Below are positions 28,206-40,504 of a DNA stretch of 64,000 bases, one piece after another; positions within the stretch are counted from its first letter, which is position 1; each line of letters starts with the position of its first letter. The translations under genes and the position numbers were made by a program. Origin of the DNA: Pseudorhodobacter antarcticus (GTDB lineage Bacteria > Pseudomonadota > Alphaproteobacteria > Rhodobacterales > Rhodobacteraceae); contig CAMAYO010000003.1 in NCBI GenBank assembly GCA_945862465.1, positions 92 to 64,091 of the forward strand. The letters are read 5' to 3'. The notes under the pieces are model-generated. The model was not told the DNA's origin. It saw only the letters and a program-made list of their open reading frames with translations, and ran no database searches.

Positions 28206-28949
28206 ATGAATATTAAAGGTTTGGCCGCTTTAGTCACGGGCGGCGGGTCGGGGTTGGGGCTGGCTACGGCGCAAGCCTTGGTGCGGGCGGGGGCCAAGGT
28301 GGCGGTGCTTGACCGCGATGTCGGCGGCTTTGACGGCTTGGGGTTTGTTTGCGATGTGACGAGCGAGGCTTCGGTTTCAGCGGCGATTGCGGGGGCAGAG
28401 GCCGCGCATGGGGTGGCGCGGATTGTCGTGAACTGCGCAGGCGTGCCCGGTGGGATGCGCCTTGTGGGGCGCGACGGGCCGGTGGACATGGCCCGCTTTG
28501 CCCAAGTGATCAATGTGAACCTTTTGGGCACGGTGTCGGTGATGACCAAGGCCGCAGCCCGCATGATGGCGGCGGATGTTTTGGGCGCGGATGGGGCGCG
28601 GGGGATTGTGATCAACACGGCGTCCATCACGGCCTATGAGGGGCAAGTGGGGCAGGGGGCCTATGTCGCATCTAAAGGCGCGATTGTGGCGCTGACGTTG
28701 CAAGCCGCACGCGAATTCGCCGCCAAAGGCGTGCGCGTTATGGCCATAGCCCCTGGCCTGTTTGCGACCCCCATGGCAAGCGAGGTTCCCCCCGAAGTGG
28801 TCGAGGCGATTACCAGCGACGCCATCTTTCCGCGCCGCTTTGGCCAGCCCGACGATTTCGCAAATATGGTCCTGGCGATCATTGCCAACCCGATGCTGAA
28901 CGGCGAAGTGATCCGCCTGGATGCGGGCGTGCGGTTGCGGGCACGCTAA
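28206..28949 (+). CDS. SDR, 3-hydroxyacyl-CoA dehydrogenase type II (HSD17B10-like)
   Basis: VTGGGSGLG, VNCAG, YVASKG, LNGEVIRLD. Confidence 0.85.
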   Translation: MNIKGLAALVTGGGSGLGLATAQALVRAGAKVAVLDRDVGGFDGLGFVCDVTSEASVSAAIAGAEAAHGVARIVVNCAGVPGGMRLVGRDGPVDMARFAQVINVNLLGTVSVMTKAAARMMAADVLGADGARGIVINTASITAYEGQVGQGAYVASKGAIVALTLQAAREFAAKGVRVMAIAPGLFATPMASEVPPEVVEAITSDAIFPRRFGQPDDFANMVLAIIANPMLNGEVIRLDAGVRLRAR

Positions 28950-29818
28950 GGGGCGATGGCCTGTTCCAAAAGCCAAGCGCGCAGAATGGCGGCATCGGGG
29001 TGGATGGGGCCTGTGTCGGGGGTGAGCAGGTGGAACGCCTCGGTCACGGGCACGGCCAAGCCAAAGGGGCGCACCAAACGGCCAGAGGCCAGTTCGTGCG
29101 CCGACATTGACGACCGCCCAAGAGCCACGCCGCCGCCATTGGCTGCCACTTCGAATGCCATCAAAGATGTGTCAAAATGCGCGCCTGATCCCGCATTCAC
29201 CTTGCTGGCCCCAGCCGCCGCAAGCCACGTGCCCCAGCCTTCTTTATAGCCCAAGACGTGCAACAGGCGTACTGAAGCCAAATCGTCGGGCGTCTTCAGT
29301 CGGGCGGCGATGGCGGGCAGGCACAAAGGCTCCATCACCTCCCAACTCAATTGGTCGGTGCGAAAGCCTGTCCAGCGGCCTGTGCCGTAGCGGATATCTA
29401 GGTCGTATTGGGTATCCTCCTCGCTCCAGACGGACGAGACGATGCGCAGGGGCACTTTGGGGTGGGCATCCAAAAAGCGTGGCAGGCGCGATGCAATCCA
29501 GTTCACCGCAAAGCCTATGGGCGCGCGCAGGGTCAGCACTTGGGTGCGGCGGTTGCCGAATACCTCTTGGGTGCCCGCCGTCAGCCGATCAAAGGCGTCT
29601 TGCACCTTGGGCAGATAGGCCGCGCCCACCTTGGTCAGCACAAGGCTGCGCGGGCGGCGTTCGAACAGGGGTTCGTGCAGGTGGTGTTCCAAGAGCTTGA
29701 CCTGCTTGGAAATCGCCGCCTGTGTCAGAAGCAATTCCTCTGCCGCTTGGGTGAACGACAGATGACGCGCGGCGGCTTCAAAGGCGCGCAGCCATGACAG
29801 GGGGGGCAGGTGTTGCAT
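28946..29818 (-). CDS. LysR-family regulator (GcvA-like)
   Basis: LPPLSWLRAFEAAARHLSFTQAAEEL..TQAAISKQVKLLE. Confidence 0.95.
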   Translation of the reverse strand: MQHLPPLSWLRAFEAAARHLSFTQAAEELLLTQAAISKQVKLLEHHLHEPLFERRPRSLVLTKVGAAYLPKVQDAFDRLTAGTQEVFGNRRTQVLTLRAPIGFAVNWIASRLPRFLDAHPKVPLRIVSSVWSEEDTQYDLDIRYGTGRWTGFRTDQLSWEVMEPLCLPAIAARLKTPDDLASVRLLHVLGYKEGWGTWLAAAGASKVNAGSGAHFDTSLMAFEVAANGGGVALGRSSMSAHELASGRLVRPFGLAVPVTEAFHLLTPDTGPIHPDAAILRAWLLEQAIAP

Positions 29819-29906
29819 AGCGGGCCTTGCGGTTGTTTGGGCGATGCTACCATGCGGGCAAGCCGAAGCCCGCCTGAAATCGTCCCCATGGGTCTGTTTT
29901 CGTCAT

Positions 29907-29921
29907 ATGGACGTTGGGCAT
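29907..29921. promoter_or_regulatory. Possible LysR box (ATG-N9-CAT, T-N11-A)
   Basis: ATGGACGTTGGGCAT in the divergent intergenic region. Short and could be chance. Confidence 0.25.
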
Positions 29922-29958
29922 GGCCCTGCTAAGGTGGGCGAAAATACGGGGGGACGCG

Positions 29959-31545
29959 ATGGATTATCCGCTGGTGATTGGCGAATTGTTGAAAACCGGT
30001 CTGCGGGCCAATCCGGCGCAGCGGATCACCTATGCGGGCGGGGTTGATCTGACCTATGCCCAATTCGGCGCGCGGGTGCATCGGTTGGGGTCCGCACTGG
30101 CGGGACTGGGGCTGGGCGAAGGTGCGGTTGTGGCCGTGATGGATTACGACAGCCACCGCTATCTGGAATGCTTCTTTGCCATCCCCATGTTGGGGGCCAC
30201 GTTGCACACGGTCAACGTGCGCCTGTCGCCAGAGCAGGTGCTTTACACCATCACCCACGCCCAAGATGACGCGATCTTGGTGCATGAAGATTTTCTGCCC
30301 CTGCTGCTGCCCTTGCTGCCGCGCATCACACGGCCCCTGCGTCTGATCTTGCTATCCGACAAGCCCGCCGCCCTGCCAGAAGGCTTTGCTGGCACCTATG
30401 AGGCGTTGTTGTCCGCTGGCGATGCCAGCTTTGCCTTTCCCACCTTCTCAGAATCCACCCGTGCGACGCTGTTTTACACCACAGGCACCACGGGCGACCC
30501 AAAGGGGGTGACCTATTCCCACCGCCAATTGGTGCTGCACAGCCTTGGCGTCATCGCTTGCTTTGCGCCCATTCCGGGCAAGGGCGGGATCAAGGCCGAT
30601 GATGTCTATATGCCGCTGACGCCCTTGTTTCATGTGCATGGCTGGGGTTTTCCGCTGATCGCCACTATGCTGGGGATGCGCCAAGTCTATCCCGGCCGTT
30701 ATGAACCGCAAAAACTGCTGCACCTGATTGCCGAACATGGCGTGACCTTTTCGCATTGTGTGCCAGCGGTGTTGGGCATGGTGCTGGGGGCCACAGGGGC
30801 AGAGACTGTCAACTTGGCAGGGTGGAAGGTGATCATCGGCGGATCAGCCTTGCCCGAAGGGTTGGCCCGCGCCGCGATGGCGCGCGGCATTGATATTCAC
30901 GCAGGTTACGGCATGTCAGAAACCTGCCCCGTTCTGACCATCGCCGATATGGCTGCGACCCAAGGCCGCGAAGACACCACCGCCATCCGCATTGCCACGG
31001 GCAAGCCCATCCCCTTGGTCGAGGTGCGCGTGGTGGACGGTGACATGACCGATGTGGCCCATGACGGGGTCGCGACGGGAGAGGTCGTCACCCGCGCCCC
31101 GTGGCTGACCGAAGGCTATCTTCACAACCCTGCGGGCACGGCTGATCTGTGGCGCGGCGGTTGGCTGCATACGGGCGATGTGGGCAATATGACGCCCGAC
31201 GGCACCTTGCGCATCACCGACAGGCTGAAAGATGTGATCAAGTCGGGTGGGGAGTGGATCTCCTCGCTTGAGTTGGAAAGCCTGATCTCGGCGGTTGCGG
31301 GTGTGAGTGAGGTGGCCGTGGTGGGTGTGCCCGATGACCGCTGGGGCGAACGGCCTGTGGTGGTGGTGGTGGCGCAGCAGGATGTGACCGAAGGTGTCAA
31401 GGCGGCGGTGCAAGCGGCCATTGCGGCAGGCCGCCTTTCGAAATGGGCAGCGCCGGAACGGGTGCTGCGGGTTGAGGCGATTCCCAAAACCTCGGTCGGA
31501 AAAATCGACAAGAAAGCCATCCGCGCCGGCCTGATGCATTCCTAA
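29959..31545 (+). CDS. Acyl-CoA ligase, DmdB-like (3-methylmercaptopropionate-CoA ligase clade)
   Basis: YTTGTTGDPKG, GYGMSET, GDVG, DRLKDVIKSGGEWISS. AVMDYDSHRYLECFFAIPM..NVRLSPEQ closely resembles Pseudomonas PA4198-type DmdB as recalled. Confidence 0.8.
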   Translation: MDYPLVIGELLKTGLRANPAQRITYAGGVDLTYAQFGARVHRLGSALAGLGLGEGAVVAVMDYDSHRYLECFFAIPMLGATLHTVNVRLSPEQVLYTITHAQDDAILVHEDFLPLLLPLLPRITRPLRLILLSDKPAALPEGFAGTYEALLSAGDASFAFPTFSESTRATLFYTTGTTGDPKGVTYSHRQLVLHSLGVIACFAPIPGKGGIKADDVYMPLTPLFHVHGWGFPLIATMLGMRQVYPGRYEPQKLLHLIAEHGVTFSHCVPAVLGMVLGATGAETVNLAGWKVIIGGSALPEGLARAAMARGIDIHAGYGMSETCPVLTIADMAATQGREDTTAIRIATGKPIPLVEVRVVDGDMTDVAHDGVATGEVVTRAPWLTEGYLHNPAGTADLWRGGWLHTGDVGNMTPDGTLRITDRLKDVIKSGGEWISSLELESLISAVAGVSEVAVVGVPDDRWGERPVVVVVAQQDVTEGVKAAVQAAIAAGRLSKWAAPERVLRVEAIPKTSVGKIDKKAIRAGLMHS

Positions 31546-31599
31546 GGGCGGGGCTTAGGCTGGCAATTGGTTGTTTGCCTTCAGACGGTGGCGCGCCGT

Positions 31600-31616
31600 T
31601 TAGTCGTGGCGACTAA
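31600..31616. promoter_or_regulatory. Perfect 7-3-7 dyad (putative operator) upstream of the demethylase gene
   Basis: TTAGTCG-TGG-CGACTAA, 24 nt before the ATG, overlapping a possible -10 downstream of TTGCCT. Confidence 0.55.
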
Positions 31617-31640
31617 CGCCCCTTTGCGAAAGACATACTC

Positions 31641-32744
31641 ATGTTCGGCATAACCCCCTCGGCCCGCCTGCGCCCCTCGCCCTATTACGAGGCGACCTTG
31701 GCGGAGGGAGTTTGCGCCTTTACCACCTATAACCACATGCTGATGCCCACATCTTACGGCAAACCGCTGGAGGAATACTGGCGCCTGATCAACGGTGTCA
31801 GCCAGTGGGATGTGGCGGTCGAGCGGCAGGTGCAGTTGCGCGGGCCGGATGCGGGGCGCTTGGCGCAGATTTTAGCGCCGCGCGATCTGTCGAAATGTAA
31901 GGTGGGACAGGGCAAATATGTGCCCTTGGTCAACCACCAAGGCGTACTGATCAACGATCCGATTTGTTTGAAATTGGCGGATGATCTGTATTGGCTTTCC
32001 ATCGCCGACAGCAACATCTGGTTCTGGGCCAGCGCCATCGCCGCTGAACGTGGCCTGCGGGTCGAGGTTTCGGAACCCGATGTTTCGCCCATGGCCATTC
32101 AGGGCCCCAAGGCCGAGGATGTCGTGGCGCATTTGTGCGGCGATTGGGTGCGGGGGCTGAAATACTTCTGGTTCCGCGAGTTTGATTTGGGCGGCATCCC
32201 CTTGGTTGTGGCGCGGTCGGGCTGGTCCAAACAGGGCGGGTTCGAACTGTATCTGCGCGATGGGTCGCAAGGCACCAAGCTTTGGAACCTTGTGAAAGAG
32301 GCAGGCCAGCCTTGGGGCATCGGCCCCGGCAACCCGAACTGGAGCGAGCGTGTCGAAAGTGGGCTGATCTCATTCGGCGGCGATACCGATGGGCAGACCA
32401 ACCCCTATGAAGTGCGGATGGGCAAATATGTTGACCTGCACGTGCCCGATGACACTGTGGGCATCCAAGCCCTGCGCCGGATTTCGGCTGAGGGGCCAAA
32501 GCGCCATTCCTTGGGCATCATTCTGGATGCGGGCGATCCGGTATCGCCGGGGTTTTCGTGGAACCCGATCTACAAAGACGGGGTCAAAGTGGGCGATCTG
32601 ACCAACTGCATCTTTTCCATTCGGGTGCAAAAGAACCTAGGCTTTGCCCTGATTTCGCGCGAATGTGTGGTCGGCGACAGGGTTCAGGCTTTGGTCGGCG
32701 GCGTGATGCAATCGGGCGTTCTGACGGAATTGCCGTTTGTGTAA
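31641..32744 (+). CDS. GcvT-family aminomethyltransferase, DmdA-like (DMSP demethylase-related paralog)
   Basis: YNHMLMP, WDVAVERQV, NDP..LKL..D.YWLSIAD, EPDVSP.A.QGP, ARSGWSKQGGFE, ERVESGL all parallel recalled DmdA. Several segments diverge (LSKCKVGQGKY, YFWFR, SFGGDTD). Confidence 0.8.
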   Translation: MFGITPSARLRPSPYYEATLAEGVCAFTTYNHMLMPTSYGKPLEEYWRLINGVSQWDVAVERQVQLRGPDAGRLAQILAPRDLSKCKVGQGKYVPLVNHQGVLINDPICLKLADDLYWLSIADSNIWFWASAIAAERGLRVEVSEPDVSPMAIQGPKAEDVVAHLCGDWVRGLKYFWFREFDLGGIPLVVARSGWSKQGGFELYLRDGSQGTKLWNLVKEAGQPWGIGPGNPNWSERVESGLISFGGDTDGQTNPYEVRMGKYVDLHVPDDTVGIQALRRISAEGPKRHSLGIILDAGDPVSPGFSWNPIYKDGVKVGDLTNCIFSIRVQKNLGFALISRECVVGDRVQALVGGVMQSGVLTELPFV

Positions 32745-32776
32745 GGGAAGGCGGAAGATGACTTTGGCGCATCGCC

Positions 32777-33265
32777 ATGATTGAGGCCAAGGTCTTCGCC
32801 AGCTTCAACGAAGGATTTCGCGCATCTTACGAAGATGAACTGCGTGGCGAGGGCTTTTTTGCTGCGCTGGCCGCCTTGGACCCAATCCCTCGCCGTGCAG
32901 AAGCCTGGCGCACGATGCTGGCGATTGAGCAAGTCACAACCCAAGCCTTGCTGTCTGCGGCCCAAGCGTTGGGCGTTGCAAACCGCGATCCGCAAGCCCT
33001 GCGCGCCGAGGGTGCGGCAGAGGCGGACGACTGGCGCGTTTTGGGCTGGTACGGCGCGTTGCTGGTGATGCGTGACGAGTTTCCTGTTTACTTGACCGAA
33101 TTTGGTGGCCTTTTGGCCCAATCTCCGCCCGCCTATGCGCCGTTGGTCGACCTTTTGATCCGCCACGAGGTTGCCTTTATCGATTTTGCCGCCGCCGAAC
33201 TGGCTGGGCAGGCTGACAGCATGGCCGTGCTGGACACCTACCTTTCCCAAGCGCGTGCCGCATGA
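32777..33265 (+). CDS. Hypothetical protein, ferritin-like four-helix pattern
   Basis: All-helical 162 aa with YEDELRGE, IEQVT, DEFPVY and RHE motifs. Stop overlaps the next start (ATGA). Confidence 0.7.
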   Translation: MIEAKVFASFNEGFRASYEDELRGEGFFAALAALDPIPRRAEAWRTMLAIEQVTTQALLSAAQALGVANRDPQALRAEGAAEADDWRVLGWYGALLVMRDEFPVYLTEFGGLLAQSPPAYAPLVDLLIRHEVAFIDFAAAELAGQADSMAVLDTYLSQARAA

Positions 33266-34014
33266 TGCGCTTGGGGTTCCTGAACCGACAAGGCGTGCTA
33301 TGGCTGGGCTTTTTCGCGCTAATCCTGCTTGCATGGGGAGGCATCTTTGCCCAAGTGGCGCAGGCCCCGATAGGGCTGTGGGGCGTGCTTTGCACCACGG
33401 CGGCTGCGGCTGGGTTCTTTGACCTTTGGGCCATGTGGGCGCTGATGGCGGCGGCGATGATGCTGCCCACCTTTGTGCCCGCCTTGCGCACCTTTGTGAA
33501 CATGGGTGCTGCGGGGGCAACGCGCCCGATCGATGCTGTGGCCTTGGTGGTAGGCTATGCTTTGGTCTGGGTTCTGGGTGCTGCTTTGGGCGCTGCGGCG
33601 CAAATGGCGCTGTCGCGGGTGGGGATGCTTGCGCAAGATGGCTCTAGCCTGTCAGTTTGGCTAACCACGGCGCTGCTTGTAGCGGCGGGGCTTTATCAAC
33701 TGTCGATCCTCAAAGCCGCTTGTCTGGCCAAATGCCGCATGCCGCTGACCTACTTTATGGGGCGCTGGGCCCCCGGCTTACCGCGCGCCCTTAACATGGG
33801 CGCAGAACTGGGGCTGATCTGCTTTGGCTGCTGCTGGGCGCTGATGGCCTTGGCCTTTGTGGGTGGGACGATGAGTTTGGTGTGGATGGGCCTTGCAACC
33901 CTGTTCATGGTGCTGGAAAAACTGCCCGAGATTGGCCGCCCCCTGACGCGGCCTGCGGGATTTGCCTTGATCGGGGCGGGGGCAGTTTTGGCCCTCCGCA
34001 CCTTTTTGACTTGA
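33262..34014 (+). CDS. DUF2182-like predicted metal-binding integral membrane protein
   Basis: MWALMAAAMMLP, GLYQLS.LKAACLAKCRMP, CFGCCWALM..AFVGG.M, EKLP. Confidence 0.85.
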   Translation: MMRLGFLNRQGVLWLGFFALILLAWGGIFAQVAQAPIGLWGVLCTTAAAAGFFDLWAMWALMAAAMMLPTFVPALRTFVNMGAAGATRPIDAVALVVGYALVWVLGAALGAAAQMALSRVGMLAQDGSSLSVWLTTALLVAAGLYQLSILKAACLAKCRMPLTYFMGRWAPGLPRALNMGAELGLICFGCCWALMALAFVGGTMSLVWMGLATLFMVLEKLPEIGRPLTRPAGFALIGAGAVLALRTFLT

Positions 34015-34025
34015 AAGGACAAAAG

Positions 34026-34649
34026 ATGTCGACCACTTTCCCAAGCTGGGTCATCAAAGGAGAGTTGATCCTAAACTGCAACTGCACCGTCTTTTGCCCC
34101 TGTGTGATCAGTCTGGGCAAACACCCGCCGACCGAAGGCTATTGTCAGGCATGGGTCGGCATTCGCATCGATTCTGGCCATTACGACGGACACAACTTGG
34201 GCGGGCTGAACGTGGGCCTGCTGATGGACATTCCGGGCAACATGGGCCGTGGGAACTGGAAAGCGGCGGCCTATATTGACGAGCGGGCTTCCGAAGCGGC
34301 CTATGACGGCTTGATCAAAATCTTTTCAGGCAAAGCGCGCGGATCGACGGGGTTGTTCGCGGTGATGGTGTCGGAGTTTTTGGGGGCAGAACGCTCTCCG
34401 GTCGATTACGTGACCGAAGGCAAAACCCGCCGCTTGTCAGTGGGCAAAAAGATACAGGGCGAGGTGACGCCGATCACTGGGGCGGATTCGGACCGCGAGG
34501 TTGTGGTTTCTAACACAGGCTACTGGATGGGCCCCGACATCACGATTGCGCAAGCGGGTAAAGGACGGGTGCGCGCCTATGGGCGGGTGTGGGATTTTGA
34601 CGGCCGCAGTGCCGAGATTTGCCAGATTGATTGGCACGGCCCGAACTGA
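34026..34649 (+). CDS. DUF1326-like Cys-rich protein
   Basis: LNCNCTVFCPC, PPTEGYCQ, YIDERAS. AAAGGA SD before ATG 34026. Confidence 0.85.
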   Translation: MSTTFPSWVIKGELILNCNCTVFCPCVISLGKHPPTEGYCQAWVGIRIDSGHYDGHNLGGLNVGLLMDIPGNMGRGNWKAAAYIDERASEAAYDGLIKIFSGKARGSTGLFAVMVSEFLGAERSPVDYVTEGKTRRLSVGKKIQGEVTPITGADSDREVVVSNTGYWMGPDITIAQAGKGRVRAYGRVWDFDGRSAEICQIDWHGPN

Positions 34650-34678
34650 TCGAGCCGATTACAGGAAAAGGAAAGACG

Positions 34679-35671
34679 ATGTTTCAAGCGCTCGTGCTAG
34701 AGAAGAACGCCGAAGGTCAGGCTGTCGCTGCGATCCGTGAACTGGACGACAGCGCCCTGCCTGCAGGGGATGTCACGGTGGCGGTGGACTATTCGACCGT
34801 GAACTACAAAGACGGTCTATGCCTGTCGCCGACCGGCAGCGGGCTGGTGCGGGCCTATCCGCACGTGGCGGGGATCGACTTTGCAGGTACCGTCGAAACT
34901 TCGGACGATGCGCGCTACAAAGCGGGCGATAAGGTGGTTCTGACCGGCTGGCGCGTGGGCGAGGTGCATTGGGGCGGTTATGCCACCAAGGCGCGGGTCA
35001 AGGCCGATTGGCTGGTGCCTTTGCCCAAGGGGCTGACCACTCGCCAAGCGATGGCGGTGGGAACGGCGGGCTTAACCTCGATGCTGGCGGTGCTGGCGCT
35101 GGAAGATCACGGGTTGACCCCTGCGGGGGGTGAGGTGCTTGTGACGGGCGCTGCGGGGGGCGTTGGGTCGGTTGCTGTCGCCCTGTTGGCCAAACTGAGC
35201 TATCAGGTGGCGGCAGTGACAGGGCGGCCTGAAACTGAAGCCTACCTGCGCGATTTGGGGGCTTCCCGCATTATCTCCCGCGCCGATCTGGCTGAAACCG
35301 TCAAACGCCCGCTAGAGGCCGAACTTTGGGCGGGGTGCATTGATGCCGTGGGGGGGCCGATGCTGGCCCGTGTGTTGGGGCAGATGAAATATGGCGCTTC
35401 GGTCGCGGCAGTGGGGCTTGCGGGCGGTTCAGGGTTGCCGGCGTCGGTCATTCCGTTCTTGCTGCGTGGTGTCAACCTTTTGGGCATCGATTCCGTGATG
35501 CGGCCCTTCGCTGATCGTCAAAGGGCTTGGGCGCGGATTGCGGCTGACCTGCCGCTGAACAAGCTGGAGGCGATGATCTTGCCTGCCACGCTTGCTGATC
35601 TGCCCGCGCTGGGCGAAGCTATTTTGAAAGGTGACGTGAAGGGTCGCGTGGTGGTTGACCTGCGGGCCTGA
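34679..35671 (+). CDS. acuI: Acryloyl-CoA reductase (YhdH/AcuI, MDR family)
   Basis: STVNYKDGL, PHVAGIDFAG, TGWRVGE.HWGGY, GTAG, VTGAAGGVGS, PFLLRGVNLLGIDSV; very close to recalled Roseobacter AcuI. Confidence 0.93.
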   Translation: MFQALVLEKNAEGQAVAAIRELDDSALPAGDVTVAVDYSTVNYKDGLCLSPTGSGLVRAYPHVAGIDFAGTVETSDDARYKAGDKVVLTGWRVGEVHWGGYATKARVKADWLVPLPKGLTTRQAMAVGTAGLTSMLAVLALEDHGLTPAGGEVLVTGAAGGVGSVAVALLAKLSYQVAAVTGRPETEAYLRDLGASRIISRADLAETVKRPLEAELWAGCIDAVGGPMLARVLGQMKYGASVAAVGLAGGSGLPASVIPFLLRGVNLLGIDSVMRPFADRQRAWARIAADLPLNKLEAMILPATLADLPALGEAILKGDVKGRVVVDLRA

Positions 35672-35680
35672 TCGCCGTGC

Positions 35681-35764
35681 CCCACGATTTTTCTGCGAAA
35701 AATCTTGCGGCCTCGATTTTTCGGCGAAAAATCGGTGCCAAATTCTTCGCAGAAGAATTGTGGG
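35681..35764. repeat. REP/BIME-like palindrome cluster, family A (three units)
   Basis: GATTTTTCTGCGAAAAATC (35686-35704), CGATTTTTCGGCGAAAAATCG (35714-35734) and AATTCTTCGCAGAAGAATT (35741-35759), enclosed by CCCAC/GTGGG. Confidence 0.85.
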
Positions 35765-35765
35765 C

Positions 35766-36932
35766 TCAATCCTTCCAGTCGCCTTCGAAGTCTTTCGGGA
35801 TCATCAGGTTATGCGCGCCAAACTTGGTAATGTCGCGCTCTCCACACAGGGCCATCGTGGTGTCGATTTCCTTGCGGATCACCTCTAGCGCGGCACTGAC
35901 GCCCGCTTGCCCCATAGCACCAAGCCCATAGATATAGCTGCGCCCGATCATGGTGGCCTTGGCCCCCATGGCCAGCGCCTTCAGCACATCTTGGCCAGAC
36001 CGGATGCCACCATCCATCCAAACCTCGACCTGATCGCCCACGGCGCGGGCGATGCTGGGCAAGCGGCGAATCGACGACAGCGCCCCGTCCAACTGCCGCC
36101 CGCCATGGTTTGATACAATCATCGCATCGGCGCCAAAATCGGCGGCGCGGCGGGCATCTTCTTCATCTAACACGCCCTTTAAGATCAACTTGCCGCCCCA
36201 CATATCGCGGATGCGGGCGATCTTGCCCCAGTCAAGTTGCGGATCAAACTGCTCTGCCGTCCACGACCCTAACGAGGACAAATCTTTGACACCCTTGGCA
36301 TGGCCCACAATATTGCCAAAACTATGCCGCTTGGTGCGCGCCATGCCCGCTGCCCAGCGCCACTTGGTGGCGATGTCGATGATATTGGCAATCGTGGGCT
36401 TGGGCGGGGCGGAGAGGCCGTTTTTCAAATCTTTGTGCCTTTGGCCCATGATCTGCAAATCCAAGGTCAGGACCAAGGCCGAACAGTTCGCCTTGCGCGC
36501 GCGGTCAAGGGCGCTCGCGACAAAATCCCAATCCTTCATCACATAAAGCTGAAACCAAAAGGGCGCTGTGGTGTGAGCTGCGACATCTTCGATGGAACAG
36601 ATCGACATGGTTGACAGCGTAAAGGGCACACCAAAGGCTTGGGCCGCGCGGGCCGCCTTTATCTCGCCATCCGCCGATTGCATTCCGGTAAACCCAACGG
36701 GTGCCAAGGCCACGGGCATGGTCACGGGTTGGCCCAGCATGGTGCCCGCAATCGTGCGGTTTGACATATCGACTGCCACCTTTTGCCGTAGGCGCAGTTT
36801 GCCAAAGTCGCTGACATTGTCGCGGAAGGTTTGTTCGGTGTACGATCCGCTTTCGCAATAATCAAAGAACATTCGTGGCACGCGGCGCTTGTGCAGGCGG
36901 CGCAGGTCTTCGATGGATGTGATCACGGGCAT
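35766..36932 (-). CDS. lldD: FMN-dependent alpha-hydroxy acid dehydrogenase (L-lactate dehydrogenase-like)
   Basis: MPVITSIEDL, FWFQLY, LKG, SNHGGRQLD, DGGIRSGQD, GRSY. Exact substrate uncertain. Confidence 0.85.
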   Translation of the reverse strand: MPVITSIEDLRRLHKRRVPRMFFDYCESGSYTEQTFRDNVSDFGKLRLRQKVAVDMSNRTIAGTMLGQPVTMPVALAPVGFTGMQSADGEIKAARAAQAFGVPFTLSTMSICSIEDVAAHTTAPFWFQLYVMKDWDFVASALDRARKANCSALVLTLDLQIMGQRHKDLKNGLSAPPKPTIANIIDIATKWRWAAGMARTKRHSFGNIVGHAKGVKDLSSLGSWTAEQFDPQLDWGKIARIRDMWGGKLILKGVLDEEDARRAADFGADAMIVSNHGGRQLDGALSSIRRLPSIARAVGDQVEVWMDGGIRSGQDVLKALAMGAKATMIGRSYIYGLGAMGQAGVSAALEVIRKEIDTTMALCGERDITKFGAHNLMIPKDFEGDWKD

Positions 36933-37155
36933 TTTGGCCTCTGAACTCGATGCAATGGGGCAGACTAGCGCGGACGGGGGTGTTCTGCTAGGGCGCGTGG
37001 TTTCGCAATTTGCCTGTTTCTTGGGCGATTTGATTATTCCCATGGCATTCTTGCCAAGCCCCACTTGCTAGAACACCGCCGCTGTGGCCTAGGGCTGGCA
37101 GGGCTGACCGCCTGGGCCCCAAAAAGGAAAGTACCTTTTCGGCGGACCGCCCCTG

Positions 37156-37992
37156 ATGTTTGACCAACCGCAATCGCACCCGATCCAGCGCAGCAAAGGC
37201 CATGCCTTTGCGGCTTTTGGGATGTGCCAAGGGCGGGTGTGGTTGGCCGATCTGGCGCAGGCGGGGTCCGCCAAGCTGATGCTGCCGCGTGTGGATGGCG
37301 ATGTGCCCGAGGCGGTGTTCTTGAACACCTCGGGCGGCTTGACGGGCGGTGACGCGATCAGTTTTGCGCTGCAGGTCGGTGATGGCGTGCGGCTGACCGC
37401 CTCGACCCAAACGGCGGAACGGGCTTATGCCAGCAACCAAGGTGCTGCCCAGATGCAGGTCCGGGCCATAGTGGGCGTGGGCGCGCGTTTGGATTGGTTG
37501 CCGCAGGAAACCATCCTGTACCAAGCCTCTAACCTGCACCGCCGCACCGAAATTGATCTGGCAGAAACCGCAACGTGCCTGACTTGCGAAAGCCTTGTGC
37601 TGGGTCGTGCCGCTATGGGTGAAACCCTGACCTCGGCCCGTTTGTCCGACCACCGCATGATCCGCCGCGCGGGCCGCCCTGTGTGGGCCGAGACCTTTCT
37701 GCTCGACGATGCCGTCCTAGCCCGCCGCGACAGCGCAGCCTTGCTGGCAGGCGCGCAGGCTTTGGGCCTTGTGGCGCTGGTGGCCCAAGGGGCGGAAGAC
37801 GCCACAGCGCCGCTTTTGGCGCTCCCCTCTGTCGCGGGCGCAAGGCTCTCGGCCTCGGGTTGGGACGGCCGCTGTCTGGTCCGCGTGCTGGCCCCCGATG
37901 GCCTGACGCTGCGCAAGCAAATGGCCCAAATCATCAAGACCCTGTCCGCGCGGCCCCTGCCCCGCGTTTGGCTAAGTGGAGGAACCTTATGA
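37156..37992 (+). CDS. ureD: Urease accessory protein UreD
   Basis: [25 protein letters not shown]; first gene of the ure cluster. Confidence 0.92.
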
Positions 37993-38291
37993 ACCTGACC
38001 CCGCGCGAACGCGAAAAACTCCTGATCTCGCTCGCCGCCATGGTGGCGCGTGGCCGCTTGGCCCGAGGTGTGAAGCTAAACCACCCCGAAGCGATTGCCC
38101 TTATCACCGACTTTGTGGTGGAAGGCGCGCGCGATGGGCGCATGGTGGCCGATCTGATGCAGGCGGGCGCCCATGTGATCACGGCTGACCAATGCATGGC
38201 AGGCGTGCCAGAGATGATCCATTCCGTCCAAGTCGAAGCCACCTTTCCCGATGGCACCAAGCTTGTCACCGTCCACCACCCCATCCGCTAA
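37989..38291 (+). CDS. ureA: Urease gamma subunit
   Basis: [11 protein letters not shown]...[17 protein letters not shown]. Confidence 0.98.
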
Positions 38292-38301
38292 GAGGCCCAA
38301 G

Positions 38302-38493
38302 ATGAAACGCCTAACCGCCCTTCTGCTCGCCCTGCCCACCGTCGTCCTGCCTAGCCTCGCCTATGCCCATGCGGGCGATCATTCCGGCCTTGGACTGATG
38401 CATCTTATCCGCGAGCCCGACCATCTGGTGCTGATTGCGGCCTGTGTGGCTGTGGTGGCGCTGGTGGTTTATAAACTGCGGTCGCGCCCATGA
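38302..38493 (+). CDS. Small membrane protein resembling the N-terminus of HupE/UreJ (63 aa)
   Basis: Signal-like N-terminus, [14 protein letters not shown], one TM helix. GAGG SD; stop overlaps the ureB start. Confidence 0.7.
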
Positions 38494-38795
38494 TCCCTGG
38501 TGAGGTTTTCCCCGCCCAAGGCGACATCATCCTGAACGCCGACCGCCAAGCCATCACCCTGCTGGTCGCCAATACCGGCGACCGTCCTGTGCAAGTGGGC
38601 AGTCATTACCACTTTGCCGAAACCAACCCAGGCCTGTCGTTTGATCGCGCCGCAGCCCATGGCACGCGGCTGGATATTCCCGCCGGAACCGCCGTGCGCT
38701 TTGAACCTGGCCAGACCCGTGAGGTCAACTTGGTGCCCTACGGTGGCTTGCGCAAAGTTTATGGCTTTAACGCCAAAGTGATGGGAGATCTGTAA
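38490..38795 (+). CDS. ureB: Urease beta subunit
   Basis: [35 protein letters not shown]. Confidence 0.98.
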
Positions 38796-40504
38796 TGGCC
38801 ACCCGTATTTCCCGCCCCGATTACGCCGCCATGTATGGCCCCACCACCGGCGACCGCGTGCGCCTTGGCGATACCGACATCATCATTGAAGTCGAACACG
38901 ACCTGACCACCTACGGCGAAGAGGTGAAGTTTGGCGGCGGTAAAGTCATCCGCGACGGCATGGGGCAAAGCCAGATCCCACGCTCTGGCGGGGCGGTGGA
39001 TACTGTTATCACCAACGCGCTGATCTTGGACCATTCGGGCATCTACAAGGCCGATGTTGGCCTGCGCGATGGGCTGATCTATGCCATCGGCAAGGCGGGC
39101 AACCCCGACACGCAATCGGGTGTGACGATCATCATCGGCCCCTCGACCGAGGTGATCGCGGGTGAGGGTAAGATCCTGACGGCAGGCGGCTTTGACTGCC
39201 ATATCCACTTCATCGCACCGGGCCAGATCGAAGATGCGCTGCATTCGGGCATCACCACGATGCTGGGCGGCGGCACGGGGCCTGCGCATGGCACTTTGGC
39301 CACCACCTGCACGCCGGGGCCTTGGCACATGGGGCGAATGTTGCAAGCACTTGACGCGTTTCCCATCAACTTCGGCCTGTCGGGCAAGGGCAACGCCTCG
39401 CGCCCCGAAGGGCTGGTTGAGATGGTCAAGGGCGGGGCCTGCGCACTGAAACTGCACGAAGACTGGGGCACAACCCCTGCGGCCATCGACTGCTGCCTGA
39501 CGGTGGCGGATGAGATGGATGTGCAGGTGATGATCCACTCCGACACGCTCAACGAATCCGGTTTTGTCGAAAACACCATGGCGGCCATCAAGGGCCGCAC
39601 CATCCACGCCTTTCACACCGAAGGGGCAGGGGGCGGCCATGCGCCTGACATCATCAAGGTGGTGACCTCGCAAAACGTCATCCCGTCGTCGACCAACCCG
39701 ACCATGCCCTACACCGTCAACACGCTGGAAGAGCATCTGGATATGCTGATGGTCTGCCACCATCTGGACCAGTCCATCGTCGAAGACGTGGCCTTTGCCG
39801 AAAGCCGCATCCGCCGCGAAACCATCGCGGCCGAGGATATTTTGCACGATATGGGGGCTTTCTCGATCCTGTCGTCAGACAGCCAAGCGATGGGGCGGGT
39901 GGGTGAGGTGATCACCCGCACATGGCAAACCGCTCATAAGATGAAGCAACAACGCGGGCGTCTTCCGGAAGAGACTGGACAGAACGACAATGTCCGCGCC
40001 AAGCGCTATGTCGCCAAATACACCATCAACCCCGCCACCGCCCAAGGGATGAGCCGACATATCGGATCGATCGCCGTGGGTAAAAGGGCCGATCTGGTGC
40101 TGTGGGTTCCAGCCTTTTTTGGGGCCAAGCCCGAAATGGTGCTGGTGGGGGGCATGATCGCCTGTGCGCAGATGGGCGACACCAATGCCTCGATCCCCAC
40201 GCCACAGCCTACCTACACCCGCCCGATGTTCGGGGCCTATGGTGGCGCACTTACTCGCAACGCGGTGCTGTTTGTCAGCCAAGCCGCCCAAGCGGATGGG
40301 TTGCGCGGCCAATTGGGCTTGGGCAAGCAAACCCTCGCGGTGGAAAACACCCGCACCATCGCCAAGCGCGACATGATCCACAACCACGCCACGCCGTTGA
40401 TTGAGGTGAACGCCGAAACCTACGAAGTCCGTGCGGATGGCGAGCTTTTAACGTGTGAACCAGCTGCAGAATTGCCCTTGGCGCAGCGCTACTTCCTGTA
40501 CTAA
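38795..40504 (+). CDS. ureC: Urease alpha subunit
   Basis: [52 protein letters not shown]. Confidence 0.99.

Follow-up and report, generated by a model that had tools for sequence, protein, structure and literature searches.

A sister-clade relative of the demethylase DmdA in a rearranged dmdE-dmdF-acuI cluster of a lake Rhodobacteraceae bacterium

The present analysis concerns a seven-gene block at positions 28946-35671 of a 64,000-nucleotide (nt) stretch of contig CAMAYO010000003.1 from Pseudorhodobacter antarcticus (assembly GCA_945862465.1; hereafter, the window), in which a LysR-family gene on the minus strand diverges from six plus-strand genes running from an acyl-coenzyme A (CoA) ligase to acuI (Table 1). 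From its sequence and gene context, this block is read here, with moderate confidence, as a working operon for the demethylation of dimethylsulfoniopropionate (DMSP) or a close sulfonium and for the detoxification of acryloyl-CoA, under LysR control, that is, a freshwater variant of DMSP-type demethylation. DMSP demethylation is usually regarded as a marine process carried out by bona fide DmdA under the control of DmdR. An operon joining a DmdA-family demethylase with DmdE, DmdF and AcuI is already known; the novelty of the window lies in a demethylase from the sister clade of DmdA, a conserved LysR in the place of DmdR, a ferritin-like gene in the place of dinB, a ligase gene inside the operon, and a freshwater host. 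The finding of this rearranged cluster in a lake bacterium suggests that DMSP-type sulfur chemistry also takes place in fresh water.

The families DUF2182 and DUF1326 were named DmdE and DmdF, respectively, by Fu et al. (EMBO J, February 2026; PMC12992908), who described the operon dmdR<>dmdE-dmdF-dinB-dmdA-acuI in roseobacters, including Ruegeria lacuscaerulensis. In that system, dmdE and dmdF were co-transcribed with dmdA-acuI and both were required for growth on DMSP and for DMSP demethylation, the dmdE defect was partly suppressed by the loss of dmdA, and purified DmdF consumed H2O2, thus acting as a peroxidase (PMC12992908). An earlier note on this DNA had proposed an undescribed cluster, a claim that does not stand, since both families were already published and the roseobacter layout was confirmed here in 24 of the 30 bona fide dmdA loci of Rhodobacteraceae, dinB being a frequent but not universal member of it. 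A literature search on DUF1326 and DUF2182 retrieved no description beyond that study.

The window block shares with the roseobacter operon the adjacent DUF2182 and DUF1326 genes, the co-directional DmdA-family demethylase and acuI genes with acuI in the last position, and a small helical metalloprotein-like gene adjoining the demethylase. The window DmdE and DmdF were 54% and 69% identical, respectively, to the copies in a bona fide dmdR<>dmdEF-dinB-dmdA-acuI operon (L140), and DmdF, present as a single copy in its own genome, shared the NCNCTVFCPC motif. The window AcuI scored 429.5 bits on TIGR02823, above the cut-off of 297, but 417.5 bits on the AcuI equivalog NF051456, below that of 440, and was 71-79% identical to the acuI products encoded next to bona fide dmdA. 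The differences are equally clear: in the window the demethylase precedes dmdEF and belongs to the sister clade, the divergent regulator is a LysR instead of the GntR-type DmdR, an unrelated ferritin-like protein is found instead of DinB, an acyl-CoA ligase is part of the unit, and the host is a lake member of Rhodobacteraceae. A hidden DmdR was rejected, as inspection of the flanks revealed none beside the block and the host genome (2.9 Mb, 155 contigs, 92% complete) held no ortholog, its best GntR match to DmdR being 28-29% identical; no DinB-like match was found in this genome either. The regulator is thus of the LysR type, and not a GntR-type DmdR, as the earlier note had stated.

Two generalizations of Fu et al., namely that in Rhodobacterales dmdEF are always found close to dmdR and that in other classes dmdEF-like genes are not found close to DMSP genes (PMC12992908), do not fit these data. 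The window dmdEF occur without DmdR, and in an unclassified proteobacterial metagenome-assembled genome (L037) and a member of Rhizobiaceae (L051) dmdE and/or dmdF were placed directly after the sister-clade demethylase, the L037 enzyme grouping in the tree with beta- and gammaproteobacterial orthologs.

By its sequence, the window demethylase stands closest to DmdA while falling outside the verified clade, a status that follows from the tree, from 78 columns held in common and from 16 fixed differences. On the DmdA equivalog model NCBIfam NF009133, with a curated cut-off of 410 bits, it scored 368.5 bits, being the best and sole DmdA-type gene of its own genome. The scores on this model were bimodal in Rhodobacteraceae genomes, with bona fide DmdA at 460-700 bits and paralogs at 355-392, and SAR11-type DmdA, one of which was compared with the structure 3TFH as a check, also exceeded the cut-off; SAR11-type and roseobacter DmdA together ranged from 457 to 698 bits. 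In the tree, all DmdA above the cut-off formed a single clade (support of 100/100), and the window clade (own support of 100/98) was its immediate sister, joined to the verified-type DmdA of SAR11 and roseobacters with a support of 100/99. A canonical DmdA ortholog was therefore ruled out by both score and tree position, in line with the divergent DmdA-like paralog recognized by the earlier note. The remaining paralogs branched further out. Among them, a second clade of DmdA-like paralogs (L120-L124, L163, L168-L247), 41-46% identical to the window protein, came chiefly from marine hosts such as Roseovarius, Ruegeria, Nioella and Yoonia, had an adjacent acyl-CoA ligase of its own and often occurred together with true DmdA in one genome.

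The likeness to DmdA (SPO1913 of R. pomeroyi; SAR11_0246, PDB 3TFH) comprises the GcvT folate-binding fold (PF01571 and PF08669), a length of about 367 amino acids (aa) and a full-length alignment, which reached 274 bits with the P. ubique structure 3TFH. Identity to DmdA was 36-46% (41-46% for the roseobacter enzymes), while within the window clade it was 65-86% across phyla, with branches much shorter than those of DmdA. The 78 columns common to DmdA and the sister clade were identical and at least 90% conserved, and 17 of them were specific to these two groups, not being found in other paralogs. Among these is the SGWSKQGG(F/Y)E-Y block, kept in the window demethylase as SGWSKQGGFE-Y, whose Trp has been cited as DMSP-specific (PMC7487153); the folate residues and this DMSP-associated Trp are both present. 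A 'non-DmdA' clade with DmdA-like structure had been reported by Gonzalez et al. (2019) and Hernandez et al. (2020; PMC7487153), and the window protein resembles it as a homolog outside the DmdA ortholog clade that keeps the DmdA-type structure and the Trp. Those studies gave neither a function nor a gene context; unlike them, the present analysis links the clade to a conserved LysR partner, as well as to dmdE/F, acuI, ligase genes and genes of the DmdC-like and DmdD-like kinds.

Table 1. Features of the seven-gene block, in positions of the window
Feature	Position	Strand	Basis or remark
LysR-family regulator, GcvA-like	28946..29818	-	Pfam HTH_1 and LysR_substrate
Acyl-CoA ligase, AMP-binding, PRK06187 type; candidate 3-methylthiopropionate (MMPA)-CoA or short-acid ligase	29914..31545	+	PRK06187 model
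Perfect 7-3-7 palindrome TTAGTCG-tgg-CGACTAA	31600..31616	.	24 nt upstream of the demethylase start
GcvT-fold demethylase, predicted to depend on tetrahydrofolate (THF); DmdA sister clade ('clade W')	31641..32744	+	GCV_T and GCV_T_C domains
162-aa ferritin-like four-helix-bundle protein, no Pfam family	32777..33265	+	Predicted fold
DmdE (DUF2182 / Pfam PpoB2), integral membrane protein	33262..34014	+	PF09948, 184 bits
DmdF (DUF1326), Cys-rich soluble protein	34027..34649	+	PF07040, 183 bits; true start ATG 34027
AcuI/YhdH acryloyl-CoA reductase	34679..35671	+	TIGR02823; true start ATG 34679

The seven open reading frames (ORFs) lie in the order and at the places given by the earlier note, and their Pfam and NCBIfam families were confirmed. 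Spacing is close from the demethylase through acuI, with 32 nt between the demethylase and the 162-aa ORF, a 4-nt overlap (ATGA, 33262-33265, as previously noted) between this ORF and dmdE, 12 nt between dmdE and dmdF, and 29 nt between dmdF and acuI; of the last two gaps, put before at about 11 and 29 nt, the second was exact and the first was 12 nt. The acuI start codon is preceded by the Shine-Dalgarno sequence AAAGGAAAG. The ligase and the demethylase are separated by 95 nt, with the palindrome inside, and a scan of the block for promoters and terminators revealed no site above chance.

The gene neighbourhoods of 80 loci carrying orthologs of the demethylase were examined, and they revealed that the block is not an isolated assembly. 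The core module of sister-clade demethylase, dmdE, dmdF and acuI was found in at least four other genomes, arranged in further members of Rhodobacteraceae as SDR-LysR<>ligase-demethylase-dmdE-dmdF-acuI in G106 (SDR, short-chain dehydrogenase/reductase), as LysR<>demethylase-dmdE-dmdF-acuI in G006, as demethylase-dmdE-dmdF-acuI in G138, and in an expanded form in Alitabrizicola, and a partial module was present in L037, L044 and L051. Since the same module was found again in other genomes, its arrangement is not due to chance; the earlier note had named a failure to co-occur elsewhere as evidence against its proposal, and the block genes do co-occur. Among the 80 loci, dmdE and/or dmdF adjoined the demethylase in six, the window counted, and AcuI also in six. 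The most frequent neighbour was a divergent GcvA-like LysR (22 loci), followed by an enoyl-CoA hydratase placed after the ortholog and, among solved structures, best matched by DmdD (4IZB, 260 bits; 17 loci), an SDR (14 loci), acyl-CoA ligases of two unrelated, non-orthologous types (11 loci), a DmdC-like dehydrogenase (6IJC, 401 bits; 11 loci), the O-acetylhomoserine sulfhydrylase MetY (8 loci) and a flavin adenine dinucleotide (FAD) oxidoreductase (5 loci).

These neighbours recall the MMPA pathway of DmdB, DmdC and DmdD, reportedly established by Reisch et al. in 2011 (structures 6IHK, 6IJC and 4IZB), given that ligase, DmdC-like and DmdD-like genes flank the orthologs in Mesorhizobium, Ahrensia, Tabrizicola and others, for example in the order LysR<>demethylase-ligase-DmdD-like-DmdC-like in Mesorhizobium. 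The window differs from this pathway in holding the ligase alone, which is not a DmdB ortholog, with the DmdC-like gene on another contig. In the expanded cluster of Alitabrizicola rongguiensis J26 (L012, 1930-13100), a ligase, a thiolase, an esterase-like gene, the demethylase, an FAD oxidoreductase (PF12831) and a ferritin-like gene are followed by a class-III aminotransferase, dmdE, dmdF, acuI and an enoyl-CoA hydratase, and these additions might point to a substrate that is longer or carries an amino group.

The best 80 ortholog matches, at 65-86% identity, came from lake, wastewater and soil bacteria, with some marine hosts (Ruegeria faecimaris, R. alba, Ahrensia). They included non-marine Alphaproteobacteria (Alitabrizicola, Pseudogemmobacter, Tabrizicola, Mesorhizobium), Betaproteobacteria (Rhodoferax, Hydrogenophaga, Limnohabitans-type Comamonadaceae), Gammaproteobacteria (Steroidobacteraceae, Thiothrix) and Acidimicrobiia of the Actinobacteria. 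Moreover, the window's own sequence was present in many lake, freshwater and drinking-water metagenomes, and freshwater (lake) metatranscriptome contigs at 95-97% identity spanned the demethylase gene and the junctions 162-aa ORF/dmdE, dmdE/dmdF and dmdF/acuI. These contigs indicate the presence of transcripts; a single transcript is not proven by them and DNA carry-over is possible. One further metatranscriptome contig (run X18), which joined position 30316 to 33348 and skipped 3031 nt, was disregarded, as its shorter side measured 21 nt; a chimera formed in assembly, or an origin in another organism, is the probable explanation.

The ligase that opens the plus-strand run belongs to the PRK06187 family, which was its best match (585 bits, above the cut-off of 476). 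On the DmdB equivalog NF005426, the MMPA-CoA ligase, it scored 377 bits, below the cut-off of 822, and its best PDB matches were 8HSY (551 bits) and DmdB 6IHK (324 bits). The earlier note had placed a ligase in the run, and its label of DmdB-like proved to be loose. Orthologs of this ligase with 59-67% identity were found in the same cluster of seven loci (L010-L012, L020, L022, L129, L132), and the host genome encodes about three AMP-ligases in total. The LysR product scored 271 bits on the GcvA model NF008352, below its cut-off of 288, and the LysR genes divergently upstream of the demethylase orthologs encode orthologs of it with 55-72% identity.

As the earlier note had observed, dmdC, dmdD and ddd lyase genes have no place in the block, and some candidates for such functions lie elsewhere in the genome. 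A DmdC-like dehydrogenase (contig C30, 48% identity) and MetY were found, as well as three cupins above the threshold of the Pfam DMSP_lyase family (PF16867), at C64:5926-6405, C1:21478-21891 and C27:13611-14045 (L141-L143), one of them DddQ-like (77 bits to 4LA2/5JSO), which are on these matches candidate DMSP lyases.

The 162-aa protein had no match in Pfam or NCBIfam. Its AlphaFold2 model, with a predicted local distance difference test (pLDDT) score of 97.8, was nearest to COQ7 (template modelling, TM, scores by query of 0.61-0.72) and to Dps-like and nigerythrin folds (TM of 0.55-0.64), with weak Foldseek E-values of 0.02-0.2, and a language-model search agreed weakly with a ferritin-like fold. 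The protein is therefore modelled as a ferritin-like four-helix bundle of an unannotated family, an assignment supported at the fold level that upholds the label given to it before. An exhaustive profile search gathered 780 representative clusters at 50% identity, in which E21, E51 and H130 never varied and W91 and E131 hardly did; no canonical di-iron E...ExxH pair was found. A word-based search had returned close copies alone, and the 780 clusters discard a lineage-specific spurious ORF. An identity with DinB was likewise rejected, as there was no DinB match, the motifs were unlike those of DinB from true operons and the fold was ferritin-like. The gene is an accessory one, since G106, the closest complete relative, carries the same operon without it.

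Members of this family occur in other settings as well. In Alitabrizicola and Pseudogemmobacter, a homolog is found a short way downstream of the demethylase ortholog, preceded by an FAD oxidoreductase; other members (L146-L149) have as neighbours GcvT genes together with amine oxidases, or serine hydroxymethyltransferase (SHMT) with a B12-binding protein; and some (P0194, P0218, P0225, P0240) are fused to the C-terminus of flavoenzymes of the old yellow enzyme/trimethylamine dehydrogenase (OYE/TMADH) type. Such contexts would fit a protein that assists demethylation or one-carbon enzymes in general.

Taken together, these genes could form the following route. The sister-clade demethylase would take a single methyl group off DMSP, or off a sulfonium carboxylate very similar to it, and pass it to THF, yielding 5-methyl-THF and MMPA. 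This choice of substrate is suggested by the recurrent joining of the clade to DmdE/F, AcuI, ligase, DmdC-like and DmdD-like partners, and by the retained DmdA-specific active-site block; it likewise agrees with the coherent methylated-sulfur cluster of DMSP type proposed by the earlier note, the partners being the same as those of bona fide dmdA. The acyl-CoA ligase would turn the acid product, and possibly acrylate too, into a CoA thioester, and the pathway would continue with the DmdC-like dehydrogenase of contig C30. AcuI, judged at the sequence level, would clear toxic acryloyl-CoA, whose source would be DMSP cleavage by the DMSP-lyase-family cupins. By analogy with the homologous system, DmdE and DmdF would guard the cell during demethylation, with DmdF removing peroxide (PMC12992908), and the suggestion of the earlier note that the small proteins handle oxidative stress is plausible. 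The ferritin-like protein might fill the place of DinB as a further metal/redox helper, and the divergent GcvA-like LysR, and not DmdR, would activate the operon upon an effector.

Several observations weigh against DMSP as the substrate, and most of them would suit the main rival explanation, of clearly lower probability, in which the layout is the same and the demethylase acts on another freshwater or soil methyl donor, the products of which would be processed by the ligase, DmdEF and AcuI. Candidate donors are S-methylmethionine, dimethylsulfonioacetate, trimethylsulfonium, another sulfonium or an N-methyl compound. The window enzyme scores under the DmdA cut-off and lies outside the clade of characterized DmdA, and 16 columns are fixed but different between the two clades, including the charge swaps H48R, G136E, G259R and R291L. 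At least two Rhodobacteraceae genomes (G030 and G063) harbor bona fide DmdA alongside a sister-clade member, and the main habitats of the clade, fresh water and soil, contain little DMSP. An FAD oxidoreductase adjoins the ortholog in L010-L012, L019, L034 and L135, which hints at other chemistry, and the L012 ortholog also has a class-III aminotransferase, a thiolase and an esterase among its neighbours; no FAD oxidoreductase of the L012 type was found in the host genome. The amine-type contexts of the ferritin-like family, with its fusions to amine-demethylating flavoenzymes, point in the same direction. Furthermore, two DmdA-like proteins whose membership of the clade is not established, SPO1648 (PMC12992908) and one from SAR92 strain H455 (PMC10746254), did not demethylate DMSP; SPO1648 of R. 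pomeroyi was not among the best 80 matches in either of two paralog listings. Finally, neither a DmdD-like hydratase nor an SBP56 methanethiol oxidase was found in the 92%-complete host genome.

The rival donor is in turn opposed by the DmdD-like and DmdC-like genes that recur directly downstream of the orthologs, which point to MMPA-CoA and methylthioacryloyl-CoA as intermediates. To our knowledge, DMSP demethylation is the sole source of these two compounds. In addition, the DmdA-specific active-site block is kept, and DmdEF are needed specifically while DmdA is active (PMC12992908). A more radical version, which we consider unlikely, holds that the sister clade is not a DMSP demethylase at all but the missing THF-dependent demethylase for another freshwater or soil sulfur methyl donor, with DmdE, DmdF and the ferritin-like protein acting as a general metal/redox protection set for sulfonium or thiol chemistry that is not specific to DMSP; the candidates in this case would be the orphan trimethylsulfonium-THF methyltransferase, an enzyme for S-methylmethionine or another sulfonium, or that of the never-identified second demethylation of MMPA.

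It is improbable that two unrelated units have been joined here, a dmdE-dmdF-acuI module for acrylate/acryloyl-CoA detoxification and a separate LysR-ligase-demethylase unit, in which case adjacency would tell little about the demethylase: dmdEF do occur with acuI alone, without dmdA, in some Rhodobacterales (PMC12992908), most LysR-demethylase pairs lack dmdEF and the palindrome-bearing 95-nt gap parts ligase from demethylase, but the stretch from the demethylase to acuI is tightly packed, holds no terminator-like site beyond chance and recurs as demethylase-dmdE-dmdF-acuI in several genomes with different flanks.

The closest uncharacterized relative of DmdA, which is strongly conserved and occurs very widely among bacteria of lakes, wastewater and soil, is thus now tied to DmdE, DmdF and AcuI. 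If this enzyme acts on DMSP, the turnover of DMSP to methanethiol extends well beyond the sea, and surveys that rely on the DmdA cut-off undercount DMSP demethylation; if it is not, the clade marks an unknown sulfonium or methyl-donor pathway. Since several carriers are in culture, such as Alitabrizicola rongguiensis J26, Mesorhizobium sp. WSM4976 and Ruegeria faecimaris DSM 28009, the role of the 'non-DmdA' clade is open to direct testing. It is also evident from the cluster that dmdEF need not be under the control of DmdR, and attention is drawn to a ferritin-like family, not yet annotated, with links to enzymes of demethylation and one-carbon metabolism.

The palindrome upstream of the demethylase occurs once in the window, against 0.02 occurrences expected by chance, and might serve a second regulator as its operator. 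None of the other loci fetched for comparison contained it.

The block is flanked upstream by genes for an M3 peptidase and an SDR, and downstream by lldD and urease genes. The flavin mononucleotide (FMN)-dependent L-lactate dehydrogenase-like gene lldD (35766-37064, minus strand) is not part of the sulfur block, and the urease cluster (ureD and the beta and alpha subunits; 37156-40504 of the window) likewise lies outside it. Between the convergent acuI and lldD genes, palindromic units resembling repetitive extragenic palindromic (REP) sequences are found at 35681-35764, with a terminator-like hairpin at 35693-35710.

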